Below, one piece after another: positions 10,260 through 40,362 of a DNA stretch of 64,000 bases. The stretch is from assembly GCA_018692925.1 (NCBI GenBank), contig JABHLH010000019.1:63322-127321 (forward strand), in the 5' to 3' direction. Below the pieces are notes generated by a model. The model had not been told where the DNA came from and did no database searches. It worked only from the letters and a program-made list of their open reading frames with translations. The stretch's first letter is position 1, and every line of letters begins with the position of its first letter. The translations under genes and the position numbers were made by a program. Source of the DNA: an archaeon (GTDB taxonomy: Archaea > Nanobdellota > Nanobdellia > SCGC-AAA011-G17 > GW2011-AR17).

Positions 10260-10703
10260 ATGAGTTTTTCAGCAATGTTAGATCCGGTTTTGAATCCTGT
10301 AATGAGTATTCCATCACCTTGGAATTTAATTCTTATTTCATTTATTATCACGTCGATAGTAACTCTAGCTTACAAATTTTTTACTGATCAGAAATTAATG
10401 AAAGAATTAAAAGGTGAGATGAAAAGTTTGCAGAAAGAGATGAAAGAATTTAAAAATCATCCTGAAAAAATGATGGCTGCACAAAAGAAAGTCATGGAAA
10501 AAAATATGAAGTACATGATGCAAAGTTTTAAGCCAACTATAATTACAATGATTCCAATTATCTTTATCTTTACATGGTTGAGAGCATATTATGTTGATGC
10601 TGGTGATCCTGCAGTATTATTTGGGCTTAGTTGGTTCTGGAGTTATTTGATAGTTACATTAGTTCTTAGTATGAGTATGAGAAAATTATTGAAGTTACAT
10701 TAA
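10260..10703 (+). CDS. DUF106 family membrane protein (archaeal Oxa1/YidC/EMC3-like insertase candidate)
   Basis: 147 aa with TM1, a coiled-coil (KELKGEMKSLQKEMKEF) and two further TMs. Follows secY, as DUF106 genes commonly do. No adenylate kinase lies between. Confidence 0.45.
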   Translation: MSFSAMLDPVLNPVMSIPSPWNLILISFIITSIVTLAYKFFTDQKLMKELKGEMKSLQKEMKEFKNHPEKMMAAQKKVMEKNMKYMMQSFKPTIITMIPIIFIFTWLRAYYVDAGDPAVLFGLSWFWSYLIVTLVLSMSMRKLLKLH

Positions 10704-11272
10704 AGAAAAGGATTTTTTTCAAAAGTTATTATAGGAGTAGCATTAGAAATAATATCTTCATCAACACCATATTTAATATTGTAAAGAGTTGCAACAGAAC
10801 AGAATAGAGCTTTTGTATAATCAAAACCTAATTTTTCCGAAACTAGTTTTACAAGTTCTTCAGATTTGCCTTCGACTTCTACAAAAGGTTCTAAAAAAGG
10901 CCATTCATCAATACAAACTTCAACTTCATCAAGAATCCAAAGTTCTCTTTTAGTTTCTTGATATGCCTTTTTTTTACAACCTAAAGTTGTTAAGAATAAT
11001 TCAGCATCAGAAAAATGATCAATATTAAGACATACTTCTTTTTGATTATGGATTTGGTTTCCATCAATAACCTTTAAACTCATTGTAATCCTATCTGATT
11101 CATCTCTAACTCTTAACCAGGCATTATCAATTTCATTGTTTTTAGGTAAAGTAAATACGGATCTCTTCATTAAGAATTCTTTTTTAATCAATTTTGCCCC
11201 AAGTTCTATTAGTTTATTCCTAATTTCATCTTTGATAATATTGGGAAAAGTAGCTTCATATTCAATTTCCAT
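10700..11272 (-). CDS. CYTH-domain protein (triphosphate tunnel metalloenzyme / class IV adenylyl cyclase-like)
   Basis: N-terminal EIEYEATF strand with alternating acidic residues is typical of the CYTH tunnel. Size is about 190 aa. Confidence 0.5.
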   Translation of the reverse strand: MEIEYEATFPNIIKDEIRNKLIELGAKLIKKEFLMKRSVFTLPKNNEIDNAWLRVRDESDRITMSLKVIDGNQIHNQKEVCLNIDHFSDAELFLTTLGCKKKAYQETKRELWILDEVEVCIDEWPFLEPFVEVEGKSEELVKLVSEKLGFDYTKALFCSVATLYNIKYGVDEDIISNATPIITFEKNPFL

Positions 11273-12416: not shown

Positions 12417-13238
12417 TTATATATTAAAAAATTGTTTAGTTAGTTCTATGTTTACAGGTCTTTGTCTAATAGCTTTTATTAGTCTAGGATTAAGATTTTT
12501 AATTTGTATTTGTTCTTTTGCCCATTCTGTTTGTTCATCAATTTCGTCGTCAGTTTCTGCTTCTATTTTTATGTCTGTTTTTGCTAATGAGTCTACTAAA
12601 TATAAGATTCCTAGTTCGTAGCTAAAGTTTTTGAAAGTTCTTGCTTTCCTTTCTATGCTTGCTTTTGTAATTTGGCTTCTAACAGTTTCAAGGTTATATC
12701 CTTCTTCAAATATTTTAAGTTCTCTTCTAAGATAACCAAAGGCAAAGTGGTTAGCTGCACAAAAAGCTACATAATGAATTTGGTGATCTGTAAGACCTTC
12801 TTCTCTTAAGAAATAAGTTATATTGTTTAGAATTATTCTTCCAGATTCTTCTTCGTGTTTATCAAAATTAGTTTTTCCTTTTTTTAGGAATTTTCCTAAG
12901 TCGTGTATAGGTAAAGAAAGTCTTAGTAGTTTTTCTTTAGAGATGCCATCAATTTGATCCCCTAAGTATTTGTCAACTTTTTCGATTATACTCCATTGAG
13001 TTAAGTAATCTCTTAGTTCAGTATCATAAGCTTCTCTTGTTTTTATGGAGTGTGTTTGAATACCCCATTGGTGCCAGGAAGGATTATGTTCTTCAATTGC
13101 GTCTGGGTTGCTTAAGAACCTTTGTCTTTCTTCTTCAGAAAGATGATAGTTGCTTTCAATAAGTCCTCTTGCAAATTCAGGTAGTTTTTCTTCCAATGTC
13201 CTTATTTCCATTTTAGTATCCCATTGCTTGTCTTGCAA
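12417..13238 (-). CDS. HD-domain phosphohydrolase-like protein
   Basis: H...H (WHQWGIQTH), then HD (LPIHDLGKF), then downstream H/D residues, in HD superfamily spacing. The track start at 13238 is a TTG; the first ATG is at 13211. Confidence 0.45.
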   Translation of the reverse strand: MQDKQWDTKMEIRTLEEKLPEFARGLIESNYHLSEEERQRFLSNPDAIEEHNPSWHQWGIQTHSIKTREAYDTELRDYLTQWSIIEKVDKYLGDQIDGISKEKLLRLSLPIHDLGKFLKKGKTNFDKHEEESGRIILNNITYFLREEGLTDHQIHYVAFCAANHFAFGYLRRELKIFEEGYNLETVRSQITKASIERKARTFKNFSYELGILYLVDSLAKTDIKIEAETDDEIDEQTEWAKEQIQIKNLNPRLIKAIRQRPVNIELTKQFFNI

Positions 13239-16110: not shown

Positions 16111-16905
16111 ATGAAAATTGGTTTTATAGGTTCGGGAAATATGGCGAAAGCTTTAATGAAAGGTATTTTAGATAAAGGTATAAGTTCAAATGAAGAAATT
16201 ATAAGTTCAGATATTTTTCCAGAAGCTTTAGAATTTGTAAAAAAAGAATATTCAATTAAAACTACTGAGGACAATAAAGAAGTGGTTAGAAATTCAGAGA
16301 TTATATTTTTAGCTGTGAAACCACAAATTATGAATGAGGTTTTGGAAGGAATAAAAGAAGAGATTAATGAACAATTAATTGTTTCAATTGCAGCTGGAGT
16401 TACTTTAAAACAAATTGAAAAGGTTTTAGAAGGAAAGAAAATAATTAGAGTTATGCCAAACACACCTTGTTTAGTTGGAGAGATGGCTGCAGGATTTAGT
16501 GTTAATGAATTTGTTAATGAAGAAGAATTAAAAAAAATTGAAACTGTTTTGAGATGTTCTGGAGTTGCATATAATTTAGAAGAAAAAGATTTGGATGCAG
16601 TTACAGGATTAAGTGGTTCTGGACCAGCATTTGTTGCAAGGTTAATTGAAGCATTTACTGAAGCTGGAATTGAAAATGGTTTGGATAAAGATGTAGCTTA
16701 TTCTTTGAGCTTGAAGACTTTTTTAGGAACAGCGAAATTGTTGGAAGAAAAAGGATTGGAAGCTGGGAAATTAGTAGAAATGGTGAGCTCTCCGAATGGA
16801 ACAACAGTTGCAGGAAGAGAAATTTTAGAAAGTTCCGACTATAAAGAGATCATTAAGAAAACAATAAATAGAGCTAAAGAAAGAAGTATAGAATTGGGAG
16901 AATAG
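16111..16905 (+). CDS. proC: pyrroline-5-carboxylate reductase
   Basis: IGFIGSGNMAKAL (Rossmann), LAVKPQ, RVMPNTP, GSGPAF, SSPNGTT are all ProC signature blocks. Confidence 0.85.
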   Translation: MKIGFIGSGNMAKALMKGILDKGISSNEEIISSDIFPEALEFVKKEYSIKTTEDNKEVVRNSEIIFLAVKPQIMNEVLEGIKEEINEQLIVSIAAGVTLKQIEKVLEGKKIIRVMPNTPCLVGEMAAGFSVNEFVNEEELKKIETVLRCSGVAYNLEEKDLDAVTGLSGSGPAFVARLIEAFTEAGIENGLDKDVAYSLSLKTFLGTAKLLEEKGLEAGKLVEMVSSPNGTTVAGREILESSDYKEIIKKTINRAKERSIELGE

Positions 16906-16906
16906 A

Positions 16907-16935
16907 AAGCTTTATAAATTCCCCATTTTTCTGTA
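16907..16935 (+). promoter_or_regulatory. archaeal BRE/TATA promoter of 5S rRNA
   Basis: GAAAGCTTTATAAATTCCCCATTTTT directly upstream of the 5S 5' end. Confidence 0.6.
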
Positions 16936-16938
16936 CTT

Positions 16939-17057
16939 ACGAGCGGCCATAGTGGCCTGGTCCCACCTGTTCCCGTTTCGAACACAGAAGTGAAATAGGC
17001 CGACGTTCCGTTGCTGTACTGCATTTAATGCGGGAAACTCGGTGCGCTGCTCACCCT
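16939..17057 (+). rRNA. rrf: 5S ribosomal RNA
   Basis: GAGCGGCCATAGTGGCCTGGTCCCACCTGTTCCCGTTTCGAACACAGAAGTGAAAT aligns with the universal 5S loop B/helix III region. The terminal helix pairs 5' GAGCGGC with 3' GCTGCTC. A BRE/TATA lies 25 nt upstream. Confidence 0.8.
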
Positions 17058-17108
17058 TTATTTTTCTACATAAATCTTATATATTAGAAGTAAAAGTGAA
17101 ATCTTAAG

Positions 17109-18125
17109 ATGGTAAGTACATTATTAGCAAAATATGAGAATAATCCTAGATTAGATATTATTATTAATTCTTCTTTTAATCAAATTCCAGATTGGGATAC
17201 TCTTAGATCTATATTTGGAGAAGGAGTTTATATTAATCCTGGAGTTCCAGAATTAGAATGGAGAGAACTTTCTTTAGCAACACCTTATGATTTAGGAAAG
17301 GATTTAGGAGAAAGAACAATTCTAGGTAAAGGTAGAGTAATTAGATTTGAAGGAAGAATGATTGATTCTTTTACAATACAAGCACAAAGAAGAGGAGTTA
17401 TAACAGATCTTTCTTGGATGGAAACAGGCCAATATTGTTTTACTTTAACAAAAGATGGAAATAATATAATTGTAGGTACAAGAGGAGGAAGTGAGAGTGT
17501 AGGACAAGTTATTGCTTTGCCTGTAGGTAGTGTTGGATATCCAAGTGAAGAAGATGAATATGTAAAAAGATTATTTTTTGGCAATTCAGAAATGGAAATT
17601 GATCCTTGTAAGTTAGCAACTATGAAGGAAGGCTGGGAAGAAGGAGCAATTCATCCTAAAGAAGATTTAGAATATTTAGATTTAATTGGTGTTTATAGAC
17701 AGGATAAAGGAAGTGCTGCCCCTTCAAATATTTTTATGTATCTTAGTAGATTAAATATCGATGGAAAAGAAATCATTGAAAGACATAGAAGATCAATGAG
17801 AGAATATAATGCTATTAAAGATAAATTTAAAACAAATGCAGACTCTTCTCAAGTAGAAATAATGGCAAGAACCCATTTACAAATCTTGGCTTTTCATTTA
17901 CCTGAAAACGGTTGGGCAAAAGATGCTTGGGAAAATGAAAGTTTAAGTTTGTGGCCAGCAGATCCAAGAGATTTGGTAAAGATGTTTGAAGCAAAACCAA
18001 ATGAAAATTTAAAACATGGAATGTATGGTGCAATTGCTCTTTATGTTTTAGATACAAATGAGAATTTATTTGGTAGATTAATGAGCCTTCCACAATTTAA
18101 AGAACAATTAAAAGAAGATTTTTAA
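17109..18125 (+). CDS. hypothetical protein (338 aa)
   Basis: Long ORF with a leaderless-type promoter (CTTATATATT at 17077-17086). No known motif recognised. Confidence 0.4.
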   Translation: MVSTLLAKYENNPRLDIIINSSFNQIPDWDTLRSIFGEGVYINPGVPELEWRELSLATPYDLGKDLGERTILGKGRVIRFEGRMIDSFTIQAQRRGVITDLSWMETGQYCFTLTKDGNNIIVGTRGGSESVGQVIALPVGSVGYPSEEDEYVKRLFFGNSEMEIDPCKLATMKEGWEEGAIHPKEDLEYLDLIGVYRQDKGSAAPSNIFMYLSRLNIDGKEIIERHRRSMREYNAIKDKFKTNADSSQVEIMARTHLQILAFHLPENGWAKDAWENESLSLWPADPRDLVKMFEAKPNENLKHGMYGAIALYVLDTNENLFGRLMSLPQFKEQLKEDF

Positions 18126-18133
18126 TTTTTATT

Positions 18134-18160
18134 TTCTTTATCTTAGAAAGATATATAAAT
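18134..18160 (+). promoter_or_regulatory. promoter with conserved TTCTTTATCTTAGA element plus TATA box
   Basis: The same 14-mer plus TATAAAT recurs at 19257-19284 upstream of the next gene. Confidence 0.5.
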
Positions 18161-18175
18161 AAAATTATCCTTTAA

Positions 18176-19255
18176 ATGAATGTGATATCTAGAGCAGAAG
18201 AAAAAAGAGTTAATAAAAAAATTCAAGATGAAGTTCTATTAACAGAATTATCAAGTTATATTGAGAAAGTTCTAAAAAGAGAGATATTAGAAAATAATAG
18301 TGGACCTGATAAAAGATTATTTGTAAATTATATAAATTTAAGAAATATATCCAAAAATTTAAGAGTGGAATTATCAAGTTCTTTTGTAAGTTTAATCCCT
18401 AATAAAATCTGGGGAAGAGATTTTTTAATGTTATCTATAAGTCTTGATGTATATCATCATAATTTTGATAGAAAGGACCACTCTAATTGGGAAGAGATTT
18501 CTCAAAGCGCTATAAAAGAAGTGAAAAATATAAGAGTCAGAAATGATGAGGATTTAGGAACTAGTTTTAATTTTTTAGTTCCAATAAAAATAGGTAGAAA
18601 TAATATTGTTAATATAGAAGATGCAAAAAAAAGAGTAAGAAAGGAAGTTAGAAAAAAATTAATTAAAGTTTTTCAAATAATAAAATGTCACTTTAATGGA
18701 GGAGCTATCTCTATTGACGATATAAATAATAAGTTAGGTTTAAAATTAGAAGAGATATATAGTGATACAGTAAAAAGTAATATTTCCCCAAAAAGAAAAA
18801 TATCCAAAGTTATTGAAAGATTTGATCGTAGAGAAATTCATATAATTAATGGAGAATATGAGGGAGTTAAAGTTGCAATACAATTTAATCCAAAGGAATC
18901 ATTCCCAAAAATTAGAACAAAAAGATTCCCAAAAAGAGTTATGATAATGTGGGATATTGAATTCCATATGTTTATTGATCAAAATTTTAGAAGCTTACCT
19001 GAAAAATATAAAAGCCTTAATACTTGGTCAAGATTTGCTGATAGAATTAGAAAAAGCAAATTATTAAGCCTCTCACAGGTTGGAGACGGTGATTTAGTTG
19101 TGTACTGGAATTATCCTTTAGTAATTACTGTAAAAAATGAGTATGATCTAGGAATAAACTTGAAAATTTCAAAGCAAATGGATAACATGAGAAAGGATAC
19201 TTCAAAAAGACTTAAAGTAATAACTAAAACAATTAATACTATTTTTGGAAATTAA
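18176..19255 (+). CDS. hypothetical protein (359 aa)
   Basis: Long ORF. Own promoter with TTCTTTATCTTAGA plus a TATA box (18134-18160). No known motif. Confidence 0.4.
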   Translation: MNVISRAEEKRVNKKIQDEVLLTELSSYIEKVLKREILENNSGPDKRLFVNYINLRNISKNLRVELSSSFVSLIPNKIWGRDFLMLSISLDVYHHNFDRKDHSNWEEISQSAIKEVKNIRVRNDEDLGTSFNFLVPIKIGRNNIVNIEDAKKRVRKEVRKKLIKVFQIIKCHFNGGAISIDDINNKLGLKLEEIYSDTVKSNISPKRKISKVIERFDRREIHIINGEYEGVKVAIQFNPKESFPKIRTKRFPKRVMIMWDIEFHMFIDQNFRSLPEKYKSLNTWSRFADRIRKSKLLSLSQVGDGDLVVYWNYPLVITVKNEYDLGINLKISKQMDNMRKDTSKRLKVITKTINTIFGN

Positions 19256-19256
19256 T

Positions 19257-19284
19257 TTCTTTATCTTAGATAATTTTATAAATA
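19257..19284 (+). promoter_or_regulatory. promoter with conserved TTCTTTATCTTAGA element plus TATA box
   Basis: Second copy of the 14-mer, followed by TTTTATAAAT and then the ATG at 19306. Confidence 0.5.
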
Positions 19285-19305
19285 TGTTAAGTATCATAAT
19301 CAATA

Positions 19306-19995
19306 ATGGAAAAAAAGAGTGAGAAACAGAGATTTGGTACTCCACACCAAAGAGTTGAAAAAAAAGTGAAAAAAAGAAAATTAAACTTTCTAAATAAAAA
19401 TAAAGACCATAAGAAAGATCCTAAAAAAGATTCTAAAATAAAGGAGCATGGAAGTAATTTAAAAGTTCTTTTAACAAAATCAGCTATTCCAGTTATTGTT
19501 TTAATTGTATTAATTTTAGTACCAAATATTATTGGATTTGCAACTTATCAAAAAGTTAGTGATGAAGAAGTACAAACTGTAAATTATGCAGCTGAAGTTG
19601 AAACTCTTGAAGAAGAATTAGGAATCTTAAATACAAATATGACTACAGTTTCTGGAATAAATGGAGAATTAATAGATTTAGTTCAAAGTAGTACTGAAGA
19701 ATATACGACCTGTGTGCAAGATAAAAGTAGTTTACAAGTTAGTTATGATAATGTATATTCTGATTATCAAAGTTGTTTAAATGAACAAGCTAGTTTAAGT
19801 TCTGTTAGTGATGAAGTTGAAAGTTTAGAAGAAGATATGGAAGAATTACAAGAGAGTTTTGATAGTTTAGCTGAGAGTTCAGCAAATAATATTTGTTGTA
19901 AAAAGAAAGTAGATGATTCTAGTATTAGATATTATAATGTTGCAGGAAATGAAGTTGTTTGTTCTTCAAGCTCAGGAGAGAGCTTATCCTGTTAA
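19306..19995 (+). CDS. hypothetical membrane-anchored protein with coiled-coil and Cys-rich C-terminus
   Basis: Basic N-terminus, one TM (IPVIVLIVLILVPNIIGF), acidic coiled-coil, C-terminal Cys cluster. Same promoter motif as the gene at 18176. Confidence 0.4.
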   Translation: MEKKSEKQRFGTPHQRVEKKVKKRKLNFLNKNKDHKKDPKKDSKIKEHGSNLKVLLTKSAIPVIVLIVLILVPNIIGFATYQKVSDEEVQTVNYAAEVETLEEELGILNTNMTTVSGINGELIDLVQSSTEEYTTCVQDKSSLQVSYDNVYSDYQSCLNEQASLSSVSDEVESLEEDMEELQESFDSLAESSANNICCKKKVDDSSIRYYNVAGNEVVCSSSSGESLSC

Positions 19996-20073
19996 TTCAG
20001 ATTTTCCAGTGACATAAACTTTATATATTATGAACATTTTGTTGTGATTAACAAGTAGTTAAGGAGAATAAAA

Positions 20074-20892
20074 ATGACACAATACGATGAACATACATTA
20101 TATTTAACACAATTATTAAGACTAAGTTTACCATTAGATGTAGCAAAAAGAGTTTCTAGAGCTAAAAATAATATTGCAAACCTTGTTGGTGTAAATGCAG
20201 ATAATGGAGTAACAATTGTACAATACCATATGGATGACCAATCAGAAGTTTTAGGGACAACAGAATATGCAACAGATAAAACAAATGCAGCACTAACAGC
20301 TTGGAGAGAACAAGTACATAATTTTGCAAAAGGATTATCTTTAGATGCACCACAGTTTTTACCTTTAGCAGTTGGTTTAGACGAAAGAAAACTTTTAGAC
20401 TTAGAAGAAGCTTTAAAACTTAATATTGAATTAGTGGCTTTAGAAGACCCAAGAGATTTTGCAGACGCTTATCAAGAAGATTTAGATGAAGGGATTATTG
20501 GTGTTCCAGGAACAATTGCAATGATGGCTGTTGATTTGAAATATTTAAATGCAGCTGGAAGAGCAGGAGTTAGTGGAGAAAGTTTTGTTAGTCAAATTAG
20601 TAGAGATATGAGATTAGGTAAATATGAACATGTTAAAGCTTTATCACCAACTAGTACCTTGAGAACAGTTTTACCAGGAGAGGCAAGAAAAAATCAAGAG
20701 TTTGTTCTTTTTGGACCGAATGCTTATTGTACACCTTTAAGTAAAGGATATGGACCAAGAGGAGATGATGATAGACCTATAGGTGCAAAAGTAATTGGAC
20801 ATAGTATTGATATTACAGCTGGATTTGTAACTCCTGTTAATCTAGGTCAAGGTTATAACAAGGCACCAATGTTTCCTTTTGATAGAAGGTAA
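20074..20892 (+). CDS. hypothetical protein (272 aa), Lys-poor compared with neighbours
   Basis: SD AAGGAG 8 nt upstream. Composition is A/G/L-rich with about 5% Lys. No motif recognised. Confidence 0.4.
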   Translation: MTQYDEHTLYLTQLLRLSLPLDVAKRVSRAKNNIANLVGVNADNGVTIVQYHMDDQSEVLGTTEYATDKTNAALTAWREQVHNFAKGLSLDAPQFLPLAVGLDERKLLDLEEALKLNIELVALEDPRDFADAYQEDLDEGIIGVPGTIAMMAVDLKYLNAAGRAGVSGESFVSQISRDMRLGKYEHVKALSPTSTLRTVLPGEARKNQEFVLFGPNAYCTPLSKGYGPRGDDDRPIGAKVIGHSIDITAGFVTPVNLGQGYNKAPMFPFDRR

Positions 20893-20908
20893 ATAAATTT
20901 TTATTTTT

Positions 20909-22945
20909 TTATTCAAATTTAACTAAAGTTTTTTCTGGAAAATTAAGAATAGCTTCAAGATTATTTTCACCCTTTGGCACATAATTTATAGTTCCACCAT
21001 GATCACCAATAACTCTTCTAATAATAATCTTTCCGCCTCTTTCAGTTTCAGCATCAGAATTTAAATCGTCAATTACTGTTTGTGGAGGAAGATCACAAGT
21101 ATTACCTAAAACAACTTTAAATCCTTCATCCATTTTTTCAGCCTGAACATAAATTTTTGGTGAACTATAATCAAGTGTTGCTTTTAATCCATTACCTAAT
21201 AAGTTTGCAAATAATAATCCAATATTTTCTCTATGTCCTCTCATAGTTAAATCTGAAGAGATAGCTAATTCCAAATTAATTTGAGAAGCTTGACCAGGGA
21301 AGTTAGTTCTAAATTCATCTAAAACAAGATCTCTTAAAGAAAATTCAGCCCAAGATTCAGTAGCATATTCTTTCATCCATCTTCTCATAATCTTGTCATA
21401 ATCTTTACAAGTTCCAAGCAATAAATTTAAACCAGTTTGAAAATCGGAAATAATTGTTTTTGTTTCATCAGTTAAAATCGGAAGAGTTGATAATTCTCCA
21501 TTAAGGAAGTTGATACCATCTTCTACATCTAAATAAGAATAAGAAGGAGGTCCACCTCTTCGTCTTCTTCTAACTCTTTTCTTTTTTTCTCCAGGATTAA
21601 ATCCTTTCCTTAATTCTTCATAAGATGGAGCTCTACCAAAGAGCCTAGTTAGATCTAATTGAATTTTTTCTGGATGTTCTAAATTGTAATTAGTAATTGC
21701 AGCTTCAGCAGAATTATGAATTAATCCTAATACAGGTAATGCAAGAGAATAACCTTGAGCAACAAGTTCAATTCCAAAATAGTTTGCAGCATGATGAAAC
21801 CTTGCATGAAGTTCTTTTTCTATTGAATCCATTTGTCGAATAGTATTTGCAGCTTCAACTGTTTTATTTTTGAAAGCCTGTTCTGCAGCTTCTTTTCCAA
21901 GCTCTGCTTCTTTAATTCCTTCTGAAACAACATCTAAAGATTTTTTATCTGCACCAAATAAACCAACTATTTGAATAATACCCTGCCTCCACCATTTTCT
22001 TGCAGCACTTGGTTCTTCCCAAGTAAAATCATAAACACTTGTAAAAGAAGGTGTATCTAAACCAAAAATAGTTCCTTCTCTAAAAATGGATAAGTTTTGA
22101 GTTAAAGCGACATAAGATAAATCCCTTTTTGTTAAAGATTCAAGTGAAGCAATAGGAAGTTGTCTTTTATTAAATCTATTAGGGTTCCCTTGAACAATTT
22201 CACCTTCAGGAATAATTAATCTTGGTCGTTCTTTTGTTTCTTCTAATTGAATTTCTTTTATAACTCTAAACATAGGGTGTTGAATTTCAAGATAAGATAA
22301 ATTAGTTTCATCAATACCAACTCTTGTTGCTAATAATTCATCAGTCTCGCTTCTATAAAAATCATCTCCTCTTCTCTCAAAATCAATTCCTAATTCTCTA
22401 AAAACATTTTCAACTTTTTGATCAAGCATTCTAATGTTTGAGAAAATATCTGTATTACAAACAACACCAACACCATGGTAATATCCAACAGAAGTTAATG
22501 GAGCTAAAAGATATTTATTTGAAGCTAAACCAATATTGTAATGTAAAATTCTTGCTTCTCCTCCTTCTTTAGGTAAGTGATTAACAATTATTCTAGAATC
22601 AATATTTAATTTTGGATTCATACCTGTTTCAGATTGATCAAAGATAAAATAAGGAGATTGTAAAAGTCTTGAAGCCATAGCTGCTTGATCATATTTATCT
22701 TTTCCAATGTATGAACCAATTTGTAAAAAATCTCCAGGTGTTGCCTCTGTGTGTTGCATAACAAAATGAGACATATCTAAAAAATCTTGATGAGAAATTA
22801 AATTTACTTTGTATAATTCTTCTAAAGTTTGACCACCTTGTTCAAGATAGGTTTGATAAACTTCAGGATAGTTTTCCATTAAATAGTGAACTTGTATTCT
22901 TTTTGAAATAGATCCTAATTCTTTCCCTTCTAATCTAAACGCCAT
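20909..22945 (-). CDS. large protein with C-terminal degenerate GHKL/HATPase_c-like domain
   Basis: The C-terminal 120 aa read as HATPase_c: N-box LLFANLLGNGLKAT, a G1-like VVLGNTCD, and a G2-like ERGGKIIIRRVIGDHGGTINY...NFP. The 550-aa N-terminal region is unrecognised. An R-rich stretch KKKRVRRRRRGG is present. Confidence 0.4.
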   Translation of the reverse strand: MAFRLEGKELGSISKRIQVHYLMENYPEVYQTYLEQGGQTLEELYKVNLISHQDFLDMSHFVMQHTEATPGDFLQIGSYIGKDKYDQAAMASRLLQSPYFIFDQSETGMNPKLNIDSRIIVNHLPKEGGEARILHYNIGLASNKYLLAPLTSVGYYHGVGVVCNTDIFSNIRMLDQKVENVFRELGIDFERRGDDFYRSETDELLATRVGIDETNLSYLEIQHPMFRVIKEIQLEETKERPRLIIPEGEIVQGNPNRFNKRQLPIASLESLTKRDLSYVALTQNLSIFREGTIFGLDTPSFTSVYDFTWEEPSAARKWWRQGIIQIVGLFGADKKSLDVVSEGIKEAELGKEAAEQAFKNKTVEAANTIRQMDSIEKELHARFHHAANYFGIELVAQGYSLALPVLGLIHNSAEAAITNYNLEHPEKIQLDLTRLFGRAPSYEELRKGFNPGEKKKRVRRRRRGGPPSYSYLDVEDGINFLNGELSTLPILTDETKTIISDFQTGLNLLLGTCKDYDKIMRRWMKEYATESWAEFSLRDLVLDEFRTNFPGQASQINLELAISSDLTMRGHRENIGLLFANLLGNGLKATLDYSSPKIYVQAEKMDEGFKVVLGNTCDLPPQTVIDDLNSDAETERGGKIIIRRVIGDHGGTINYVPKGENNLEAILNFPEKTLVKFE

Positions 22946-23081
22946 AACTAATCAGTAACAACAAATGAATATATAAGCTTTTTGTCACTAAAAACATAGA
23001 ATTGGAGAATACACTTAGAATTTTAAAGAATTAAAAAGAATAAAAGAAAAGTTTATAATATTAAGTTCTTTAAAAACAAAT

Positions 23082-24584
23082 ATGTTAAAAGAGACTTTGT
23101 TTCCCTTCAAAATAATAAATGGAGTTGGAAAAAGATTATTAGATAACTATTGGTTGTCAAAAAAAGTTATTGAAAATGGTTCTCCGGCATTATTAGAAGA
23201 AATTTCTAAGCAAAAAGCATTCTATATTCATAAAAAAGCATTGAAAAATGTTTCTGCATATCAAAAATTTATAAGAGGAAAAAAATATAGTTTAATTGAA
23301 GATGTTCCTTTAACAGATAAAAAAAATTATGTTAAAAAATATTCTTATGAGTCAAGATGTGTAAATAATAAATTTCCAAAGAAAGGAATTATAGAAGAAT
23401 CATCTGGTTCTAGTGGAAAACCTACAAATTGGATAAGAGAAGTAGGAGAAGCAGAGTTATTATACAAAGCAGCAAAGTTTGAATTTTATTATACTTTTAA
23501 TGCAGATAAAAAAGATTATATTGTTTTGAGTGGATGGTCATCAGGACCATGGGCAACTGGATTAAAATTTTGTGAATTAATGGAACAGTATATGCTTGTA
23601 AAAAATACAACTGCAGATATTGATAACAATATTAGAACTTTAAAACAATTAGGAAAGAAATATAATTATTTGATTGCAGGATATCCTCCATTCTTGAAAA
23701 ATTTGTTTGATAGTAAAGAAATTAACTGGAAACAATATAAAATTGATATAATTACAGGTGGAGAATCAACTACATTAGAATGGAAAAAATATATTAGAAA
23801 ACAATTAGGAAACAAAAATGCAAAGATTATTTCTTCATATGGTGCTTCAGATATTGATATTGGGATTGGTTTTGAAACTCCATTTTCAGAATTTATTAGA
23901 GAATTAACAAATAAGAATCAAGTTTTGAATAAAAAATTATTTGGAACCGATCAAAACCCCATTTTATTCCAGTATAATCCCTTAATGCATTATATTGAAA
24001 ATAATAAAGTTGGAGACTTTTCAGTTACTTTGTTAGATCCTGAAGTAGCTTCACCGAAAGTAAAATATAATTTACATGATAGAGGAGGAGCAATATCTTA
24101 TAAAGATATCATTAAAGATTTAAATAAGTATGAAAGAAATAAATTGAAAACCTTTTTGAAGAAAAATAAAACTTTGAAATTACCTTTCTTGTATGTTTGT
24201 GGACGAGTAGATGGAACTATTTCAATTGGAGGGAATAATATTTATCCTCAACAAGTTGAAGAAGCAATCCATGCCTCAAAATTAGCTTCAAAAGTAAATA
24301 GGTTTATGATTGGAACTAGCCAAGATAAACATTTTAATGTTAAATTTGATGTACATGTAGAATTAAAGAAAGGAGTTAAAAAAACAAATCTTAAACCTTT
24401 CCTTGAAAAGATTATTTTGAAAAAATTATTAGAAGAGAATTTAGAGTTTAAAGAATATTATAGAAACCATAAAACTAATCAAGTTTATTTGAAACCAAAA
24501 GTTAGTTTGTATGATTTTAATAAAGAGCATATTTTTAAGAAACAAAATAAAAGTATAAAACAGAATTATATTCTTAAATCTTAA
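23082..24584 (+). CDS. adenylate-forming enzyme, PaaK/coenzyme F390 synthetase/GH3-like family
   Basis: P-loop-like ESSGSSGKPT matches the TSGTTGKP adenylation motif of PaaK-like ANL enzymes. Size is 500 aa. Confidence 0.55.
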   Translation: MLKETLFPFKIINGVGKRLLDNYWLSKKVIENGSPALLEEISKQKAFYIHKKALKNVSAYQKFIRGKKYSLIEDVPLTDKKNYVKKYSYESRCVNNKFPKKGIIEESSGSSGKPTNWIREVGEAELLYKAAKFEFYYTFNADKKDYIVLSGWSSGPWATGLKFCELMEQYMLVKNTTADIDNNIRTLKQLGKKYNYLIAGYPPFLKNLFDSKEINWKQYKIDIITGGESTTLEWKKYIRKQLGNKNAKIISSYGASDIDIGIGFETPFSEFIRELTNKNQVLNKKLFGTDQNPILFQYNPLMHYIENNKVGDFSVTLLDPEVASPKVKYNLHDRGGAISYKDIIKDLNKYERNKLKTFLKKNKTLKLPFLYVCGRVDGTISIGGNNIYPQQVEEAIHASKLASKVNRFMIGTSQDKHFNVKFDVHVELKKGVKKTNLKPFLEKIILKKLLEENLEFKEYYRNHKTNQVYLKPKVSLYDFNKEHIFKKQNKSIKQNYILKS

Positions 24585-30815: not shown

Positions 30816-30941
30816 CCCTGTCTGGCTCAACGGTAGAGCACTCGGCTGTAGATCAATTCGCCCTTTGACGGTGCAAATGCACAGAATGAAAATGGGAGAG
30901 CCGTACCCGAGCGGTTCCTGGTTCAAATCCGGGGGCAGGGA
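30816..30941 (+). tRNA. tRNA-Tyr (GUA) with a 54-nt canonical-position intron
   Basis: Acceptor CCCTGTC/GGCAGGG with C1:G72, the archaeal/eukaryal Tyr identity pair. D-arm GCTC/GAGC. Anticodon stem CTCGG, loop CUGUAG, intron, then CCGAG. T-arm CCTGG-TTCAAAT-CCGGG. Discriminator A. Intron is about 30852-30905. Confidence 0.7.
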
Positions 30942-40161: not shown

Positions 40162-40257
40162 GGAAATAGAAAGAATCTTTGAGTTTTAAAAGAATATTTG
40201 TGTTGGAACATACATAGAAATCCTTATAAAGAATATTAAAGTTTTATTGGATAACTG

Positions 40258-40362
40258 GGATAGTAGTTTAACTTGGCTAGAGCAGTCGGCTCCAACCCGA
40301 CAGATCGGGGAAACAATCTACGTTAAGGAGAATGTTCCGAAATTCAAATCCCTGCTATCCCA
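40258..40362 (+). tRNA. tRNA-Trp (CCA) with a putative ~32-nt non-canonical intron in the T-arm
   Basis: Acceptor GGGATAG/CTATCCC plus A73. Anticodon arm GTCGG-CUCCAAC-CCGAC. T-stem CGGGG/CCCTG with loop TTCAAAT. About 32 extra nt (AAACAATCTACG...CCGAAA) sit between T-stem 5' and the T-loop. D-stem is weak (GUUU/GAGC). Minus-strand reading rejected for lack of a T-arm. Confidence 0.5.

Follow-up and report, generated by a model that had tools for sequence, protein, structure and literature searches.

Five open reading frames (ORFs), which we call g1 to g5, lie between the 5S ribosomal RNA (rRNA) gene and a PaaK-like gene in the 64-kb stretch of archaeal contig JABHLH010000019.1 that we analysed (the window). 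The question raised by this locus is whether the five genes form an accessory island or a novel system placed beside the rRNA gene, as a preliminary description of this DNA suggested, or whether they belong to the native genome. We conclude, with a probability of roughly 0.6, that what we see in this marine DPANN (Nanoarchaeota-type) archaeon is a mosaic of native genes restricted to its clade and not one element or system: a conserved core, g3 to g5, preceded by a small spot that would have received two insertions. The coordinates, lengths and strands of all five ORFs were exactly as first described; the 5S gene began where it had been placed and, by Rfam, ended at 17055 and not at 17057.

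16939–17055, + strand: 5S rRNA gene (Rfam RF00001, 62.4 bits, E 1e-10, gathering score 38)
17109–18125, + strand: g1, 338 amino acids
18176–19255, + strand: g2, 359 amino acids
19306–19995, + strand: g3, 229 amino acids
20074–20892, + strand: g4, 272 amino acids
20909–22945, − strand: g5, 678 amino acids

No significant family match was obtained for any of the five in Pfam, NCBIfam, PHROGs or PADLOC, the defence-system models of PADLOC (E <= 0.1) gave zero matches among them, and NCBI labels all of them 'hypothetical protein' in four metagenome-assembled genome (MAG) assemblies. Half of the genes around them (11 of 22 called genes over 22 kb) also have no Pfam match, so a run of five unannotated genes is not exceptional here. 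The initial impression that none carries a recognisable family motif failed for g1, which has a divergent Nudix box and a Nudix fold, and for g5, whose C terminus matches a histidine-kinase-type ATPase domain; sensitive profile and fold searches placed these two of the five proteins. Besides the 5S gene there was no further RNA gene inside the block, and the window held no paralogues of g1–g5.

A conserved core and a variable spot behind the 5S gene

We compared the locus with those of a sister species (L008–L010; g5 84% identical), a Black Sea Nanoarchaeota MAG (L007), a TARA scaffold (L017) and, more distantly, a Joint Genome Institute (JGI) contig carrying the protein P0004. The scan of genome contigs supplied one relative only, on a contig that breaks within g3, and a metagenome scan with a 20-mer from the 5S gene, aimed at further variants of the site, returned no match. 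GCA_018659445.1 and many contigs from marine metagenomes contained the exact g5 protein.

Three configurations of the locus emerged from tblastn and the gene tables. The window has the order proC-5S-g1-g2-g3-g4-g5, the TARA scaffold has proC-5S-g1-g3-g4, at which point the contig ends, and the sister species has proC-5S-g3-g4-g5. The 5S gene, kept in L009 and L017, is thus the left edge of a variable spot: g1 occupies the post-5S site only in the window species and on the TARA scaffold and is absent there in the sister species, while g2 is absent from both L017 and L008–L010. The suspicion that the position behind the 5S gene varies between related lineages was therefore supported, with g1 and g2 in the window, g1 alone on the TARA scaffold and neither in the sister species. 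This presence/absence variation lies between species; within the window species there was none, since all 24 contigs read for it had the same gene order and g2 was present in each. The window species is near-clonal, with 0–1 nucleotide differences over 8.5 kb (16111–24584 against L001–L006, from six metagenomes or assemblies).

The remainder of the block behaved differently. The order of g3–g5 between the 5S gene and the PaaK-like gene was the same in three related lineages (L007, L008–L010 and L017, the contig of the last stopping after g4), and the orthologues were 78–90% identical. Their ratios of nonsynonymous to synonymous substitution rates (dN/dS) were 0.16–0.27, indicating purifying selection; proC and a Cas4-like gene gave 0.06–0.11. 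Synteny in three lineages together with purifying selection speaks against the whole block being an accessory island or a single system. The preliminary description had named orthologues of all five genes in the same order in most relatives, with housekeeping annotations, as what would contradict an accessory block; we found the shared order for g3–g5 and not for g1 and g2, and no housekeeping annotation. We therefore describe the locus in two layers, the first of which would be a native g3–g5 core that all close relatives keep between the 5S and PaaK-like genes.

Tests for a mobile element or a single system

We were concerned that the whole 6-kb block might nevertheless be a degraded integrated mobile element or provirus beside the 5S gene whose integrase had been lost. 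Such an element would fit a position adjoining an rRNA gene, five hypothetical proteins and repeats in the spacer. Its other expected marks were missing. No integrase, transposase or recombinase family in Pfam, NCBIfam or PHROGs matched any of the five proteins, the neighbours are housekeeping genes, and PHROGs and PADLOC as a whole gave no match; IMG/VR contained no relatives of g1, g2, g4 or g5, and the phage and plasmid collections contained none of g2. The guanine-plus-cytosine (GC) content, the GC content at third codon positions (GC3) and the codon-usage distance of g1–g5 all fell within ±1.6 standard deviations of the 72 gene-length ORFs of the window, so that the compositional deviation looked for in an accessory block was not seen, and both GC and codon usage appear native. 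The earlier statement that neither an integrase nor a direct-repeat boundary was seen was right about the integrase and wrong about the repeat, because g2 is flanked by a perfect 15-bp repeat. Direct repeats were perfect at the boundaries of the 1.1-kb g2 unit, looser for g1 and absent for the 6-kb block, and hence never bound the block as a whole. Taken with the synteny and purifying selection of g3–g5, these results make an integrated element or provirus barely credible, and several 'hypothetical' genes in a row next to an rRNA gene of a DPANN genome are by themselves no sign of a mobile island.

We also considered that g1–g5 might be one functional accessory system, for example a novel signalling or surface module, transcribed and used together. 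The genes are tightly packed, four of them co-directional and the fifth convergent, and g4 and g5 have a promoter motif in common. That motif, however, is restricted to g4 and g5, and each of the five genes has a TATA-like box before it and a T-rich stretch behind it. Moreover, close relatives that retain g3–g5 can do without g1 and g2, and homologues of g1 elsewhere sit in nucleotide-sugar or head-group clusters, never with homologues of g3–g5. A single system is accordingly quite unlikely, and we return to the mosaic of a conserved core and an insertion spot.

Two proposed insertions at one spacer

The second layer of the locus depends on the spacers around g1 and g2, in which three elements can be recognised.

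17057–17081, + strand: R1, T-rich spacer element after the 5S gene (TTTATTTTTCTACATAAATCTTATA), probably the 5S terminator
18126–18147, + strand: R2, spacer repeat whose 15-mer core, TTTCTTTATCTTAGA at 18133–18147, is the left flank of the g2 indel
19256–19270, + strand: R3, second perfect TTTCTTTATCTTAGA and right flank of the g2 indel, which follows directly on the stop codon of g2

The copies of the perfect 15-bp direct repeat TTTCTTTATCTTAGA are spaced 1123 bp apart, and this is the length of the indel that contains g2. Exact copies of this 15-mer number only two in 64 kb; we rejected it as a general genome motif, the other matches carrying 2–3 mismatches and standing at chance level. The g1–g3 junction on the TARA scaffold contains a single copy of the 15-mer, TTTCTTAATCTTAGA, and its g1–g3 spacer consists of the left part of the window's g1–g2 spacer and the right part of its g2–g3 spacer. 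The window's own two 15-mers agree with each other in full and differ by one base from the TARA copy.

The junctions of g1 could be placed in the same way. R1 is collinear with the sister species' 5S–g3 spacer up to CTTA(G/T)ATA, the point at which the inserted g1 unit starts (alignment A3), and from CTTAGATAATTTTATAAATA on that sister spacer is collinear with the g1–g3 spacer of the TARA scaffold. The g1 junctions map to the same spot as the g2 insertion. Each inserted unit carries a TATA-like box of its own, 20–30 nt before the ATG, and ends in a T-rich tail behind the stop codon.

We propose for this second layer a small insertion spot that coincides exactly with the junction of the 5S terminator and the g3 promoter, where two single-gene units, each bringing its own TATA box, would have been added one after the other. 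The g1 unit would have come first, being common to the TARA lineage, and the repeat copies flanking it would have diverged since; g2 would have followed in the window species only, where the 15-bp repeats on either side of it have stayed identical. Recombination or integration at a short spacer sequence, which was thereby duplicated to flank the insert, would be the likeliest mechanism.

The same pattern of presence and absence might instead have arisen by loss. An ancestor with g1 and g2 between repeated terminator–promoter modules could have given rise to all three configurations if the TARA lineage lost g2, and the sister species both genes, by recombination between direct repeats. Deletion of this kind leaves exactly one repeat copy, as is found on the TARA scaffold, DPANN genomes are streamlined, and gain and loss need equal numbers of events, two each. 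Several details favour gain. The diverged flanks of g1 and the perfect flanks of g2 match the phyletic order expected of serial gains, and the identity of the window 15-mers to each other and not to the TARA copy favours a gain in the window lineage. In addition, g2 has no homologue in any other lineage, and the sister species' own copy of g1 lies at a different locus that is typical of the family. We regard loss as a possible reading, and the lesser one.

A number of observations weigh against serial insertion at this spot. It is drawn from only two insertion events and three lineages, with repeat-mediated deletion as its standing competitor. No recombinase was identified. The case for R1 as a third copy of the repeat is weak, its identity to R2 being ~68% by manual count on alignment A3 in T-rich DNA. 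Finally, gene flux is not confined to the post-5S site, since other single-gene indels occur without repeats: the sister species lacks, as a clean indel of ~980 bp, a 264-amino-acid gene that lies at 12417–13211 (− strand) with the prefoldin and primase genes on its two sides, and we found no flanking repeat there.

A bolder version of serial gain is that the junction of the 5S terminator and the g3 promoter is a dedicated, reusable attachment site that captures promoter-bearing single-gene cassettes serially and, separately, that g4 and g5 together make up a new signalling module of two genes. The recombinase would then be supplied from elsewhere in the genome or by a visiting element, which would make this an integron-like locus that has no integrase linked to it; as an orphan gene, g2 would either have been captured recently or be newly born, and g4/g5 would combine a histidine-kinase-like ATPase with a highly conserved sensor or enzyme domain. 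We consider this conjunction unlikely and keep to the simpler proposal of two insertions beside a conserved core.

g2, an orphan gene

The protein encoded by g2 has an isoelectric point of 9.9, is rich in Ile, Lys and Asn and has no transmembrane segment. A search of 5.8 billion proteins returned only g2 itself, and the PDB, phage, plasmid and viral sets held no relatives. This raised the possibility that g2 is a non-functional ORF remaining from inserted junk DNA, as the want of any homologue or detectable domain, a GC content of 25.5% and a Lys/Ile/Asn-rich composition might suggest. We estimate from base composition, however, that 359 open codons at ~25% GC would arise by chance with a probability of ~1e-15. 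The codon usage of g2 is genome-typical (z −0.45), it has its own TATA-like box (~18152–18162) and a clean stop with a terminator-like repeat behind it, and it is identical in all 24 contigs read for the window species. A junk ORF is thus very unlikely. On the strength of its long open frame at such a GC content, its native codon usage and its own promoter, we predict that g2 is a real gene. Its insertion would then be a clean, dated case of the gain of an orphan gene at a 15-bp repeat, which may aid the study of gene acquisition in very small symbiont genomes.

g1, a probable Nudix hydrolase

Structural comparison placed g1 in the two-domain Nudix fold, an alpha/beta/alpha sandwich, with human NUDT22 as the closest structure; sequence identity to NUDT22 and other Nudix structures was 9–13%. 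The g1 family comprises 13 proteins, 32–78% identical, in related archaea. Their alignment has a PxGxV element, a variable loop and then xE[AG]xEExG[ILV], the catalytic half of the Nudix box, and the helix glutamates E174, E177 and E178 are invariant in 12 sequences. Set against the full box, GX5EX7REUXEEXGU, the C-terminal half is present, the position of the Arg is not conserved, and the spacing from the G to the helix is too long by 6–20 residues. We take g1 to be probably a NUDT22-like Nudix hydrolase of nucleoside-diphosphate-X compounds. Two negative results need to be set beside this assignment: the Pfam NUDIX model (PF00293) did not match g1 even at E <= 1, which counts against it, and a profile search of PDB sequences with g1 returned nothing.

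The genes around g1 homologues suggest what such an enzyme would act on. Across seven contexts (L011, L013/14, L015/16, L018, L022, L023), the homologues lie among nucleotidyl- or cytidylyltransferase, methyltransferase and sugar, lipid-head-group or phosphonate genes. Their neighbours encode nucleoside triphosphate (NTP) transferases, cytidylyltransferases, DUF711, inositol monophosphatase, a cytidine diphosphate (CDP)-alcohol phosphatidyltransferase, methyltransferases, GT4 glycosyltransferases and UDP-glucose dehydrogenase, and in addition a cytidylyltransferase–phosphoenolpyruvate (PEP) mutase fusion with an Fe-dependent alcohol dehydrogenase. A g1 homologue stands by itself on the opposite strand in each of the five DPANN-type contexts, and in L022 and L023 it shares the direction of its upstream neighbours. 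The sister species' copy sits in an NTP-transferase/DUF711 cluster concerned with nucleotide-activated sugars or head groups, and on this basis the predicted substrate of g1 would most likely be a nucleoside diphosphate (NDP)-sugar or a CDP-linked intermediate. If so, g1 would define an archaeal Nudix family that has so far gone undetected, NUDT22-like and tied to nucleotide-sugar, lipid-head-group and phosphonate clusters.

In a neighbour-joining tree the window's g1 was the sister of the copy at the other locus in the sister species, to which it is 52% identical, and its dN/dS of 0.39 indicates weaker constraint than on g3–g5. Together, the tree position and the dN/dS suggest that g1 was relocated or duplicated within the genus and then diverged fast. 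The sister homologue itself (L015, L016; 8001–8990) has an in-frame TAG at codon 216, and the 112 codons downstream of it are well conserved. The TAG-bearing sequence was present on at least 24 contigs from many samples, so this is no assembly error; it could reflect a recent pseudogene or stop-codon read-through. One further g1 variant (P0007/L025) was rejected as a real rearrangement, because nt 1–319 of its scaffold are related neither to the window nor to any of the fetched loci and the assembly is probably chimeric.

The core genes g3, g4 and g5

As judged from hydropathy and composition, g3 starts with a tail rich in Lys and has a single transmembrane segment inside a hydrophobic region (residues 50–84), an acidic coiled-coil region and six cysteines, mostly near the C terminus; in Pfam and NCBIfam it drew coiled-coil-type noise only. 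Its orthologues in L008–L010, L007 and L017 are 79–90% identical, with dN/dS of 0.17–0.21, and the protein is likely membrane-anchored and surface-exposed, with a coiled coil.

The convergent genes g4 and g5 have a motif upstream that is common to both.

20007–20027, + strand: promoter motif upstream of g4, CAGTGACATAAACTTTATATA, first seen as inverted repeat I1
22970–22990, − strand: promoter motif upstream of g5, TAGTGACAAAAAGCTTATATA, common to g4

This upstream motif (~60 nt) consists, in this order, of CAGTGACA(A/T)AAA, a pair of variable bases, TTATATA and TTTGTTGT. L007, L009 and L017 keep it, it matches twice in 64 kb against 0.13 matches expected, and the fetched loci contained it at no other place. 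We consider g4 and g5 probably co-regulated, since a conserved promoter motif that is private to these two convergent genes speaks for this.

The g4 product is a soluble acidic protein kept in the related lineages (dN/dS 0.27). An exhaustive HMMER search of 1.84 billion representatives returned g4 itself and one true distant homologue, P0021 (E 8e-6); P0020 and P0022 were repetitive and were discarded as spurious. A PDB profile search with g4 found nothing. A single-sequence match to ribosomal protein uS2 in the PDB (E 0.069) vanished with a 4-sequence profile, and we dropped that assignment.

The g5 product is a cytoplasmic protein with only 4 clusters of homologues and a dN/dS of 0.16. Residues 1–345 form a novel N-terminal domain that is far better conserved than the C-terminal half (alignment A2), and a long, predicted helical mid-region with invariant H384 and H385 follows. 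Residues 536–675 resemble a histidine-kinase-type ATPase domain: a PDB profile search matched the catalytic domain of ThkA (3a0t_A, E 3.5e-4, residues 3–147 of 152), the N-box asparagines N581 and N585 are invariant, and NCBIfam histidine-kinase models matched residues 540–630 weakly. We think it most likely that g5 would act as a cytoplasmic ATP-dependent sensor or kinase working with g4, which would make the pair a lead to a co-regulated module limited to a narrow clade and equipped with a histidine-kinase-like ATPase.

Against a functioning kinase stand the degenerate G1 and G2 boxes of g5, the failure of Pfam HATPase_c to match even at E <= 1 and of the HisKA model to match at all, and an AlphaFold2 (AF2) model from a 4-sequence alignment with a predicted local distance difference test (pLDDT) score of 35. 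No receiver domain was found either by phmmer with CheY and Spo0F among the ORFs of the window and the fetched loci (E <= 10), a weak test that covers 64 kb of the genome. Some points also weigh against the partnership with g4, which is based on the promoter motif and adjacency. P0021 stands in an unrelated context without a g5-like gene (between an ORF whose translation reads as a membrane H+-pyrophosphatase and an RNA cyclase gene), and the g4 search did not pick up the neighbour of the g5 homologue in the P0004 lineage, which encodes 316 amino acids.

Neighbouring genes

The 'PaaK-like' gene that closes the block (23082–24584, + strand) is divergent from g5 in all lineages; its sole Pfam-type signal was a sub-threshold AMP-binding_C_2 match (E 0.006), and its family label is itself weak. 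The 264-amino-acid gene at the repeat-free indel has the most deviant codon usage among ORFs of more than 200 amino acids (z 2.98) and no Pfam match, and its HDLGK motif may mark an HD-type phosphohydrolase. A CYTH-domain gene (10700–11272, − strand), between the L34e and EMC3-like genes, is present in the window and in the P0004 lineage and absent from the sister species. Two transfer RNA (tRNA) genes, 30816–30941 (126 nt) and 40257–40362 (106 nt), were found by Rfam and missed by ARAGORN in bacterial mode. They probably contain introns, and introns in tRNA genes are usual in archaea.

Comparison with known systems

For g1, the nearest known protein is human NUDT22, a hydrolase of uridine diphosphate (UDP)-glucose and UDP-galactose (PDB 5lor, 5lou). 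NUDT22 converts UDP-glucose to glucose-1-phosphate and uridine monophosphate (UMP) (PMC10101856) and has no conventional Nudix box (PMC5688067). Relative to NUDT22 and other Nudix proteins, g1 adds a helical C-terminal extension of ~115 residues (219–333), and the loop that leads from its PxGxV part to the catalytic helix exceeds the canonical Nudix spacing by 6–20 residues. The family is limited to DPANN-type archaea, in which it has 13 members.

The appropriate comparison for g5 is with sensor histidine kinases such as Thermotoga maritima ThkA (PDB 3a0t). The C terminus of g5 aligns over the whole ATP-binding domain, and the long helix with H384/H385 ahead of the ATPase resembles a DHp domain with its H-box. 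Unlike in these kinases, the G1/G2 boxes and the ATP lid are degenerate and no receiver partner was seen, and the N-terminal 345 residues are more conserved than the kinase half, the reverse of what is typical.

The insertion spot recalls two kinds of variable locus. Flexible genomic islets beside tRNA and rRNA genes are known from aquatic prokaryotes, and Pelagibacter has a hypervariable region, HVR2, between its 23S and 5S rRNA genes. Our locus resembles such islets in its variable content at a fixed rRNA-adjacent spot, in a streamlined marine microbe, with short repeats as bounds. It differs in that only one or two genes (1–2 kb) are involved and the variation is between species and not between strains, the 24 contigs of the window species being identical; neither an integrase nor cassette turnover was seen. 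Integron cassette arrays, in turn, have single-gene units placed serially at one site with a short repeat after each, as R1, R2 and R3 would be here. In contrast to an integron, our locus has no nearby integrase gene and two units only, each unit has its own promoter, and the repeats are 15–25 bp, T-rich and terminator-like where an integron has structured attC sites.

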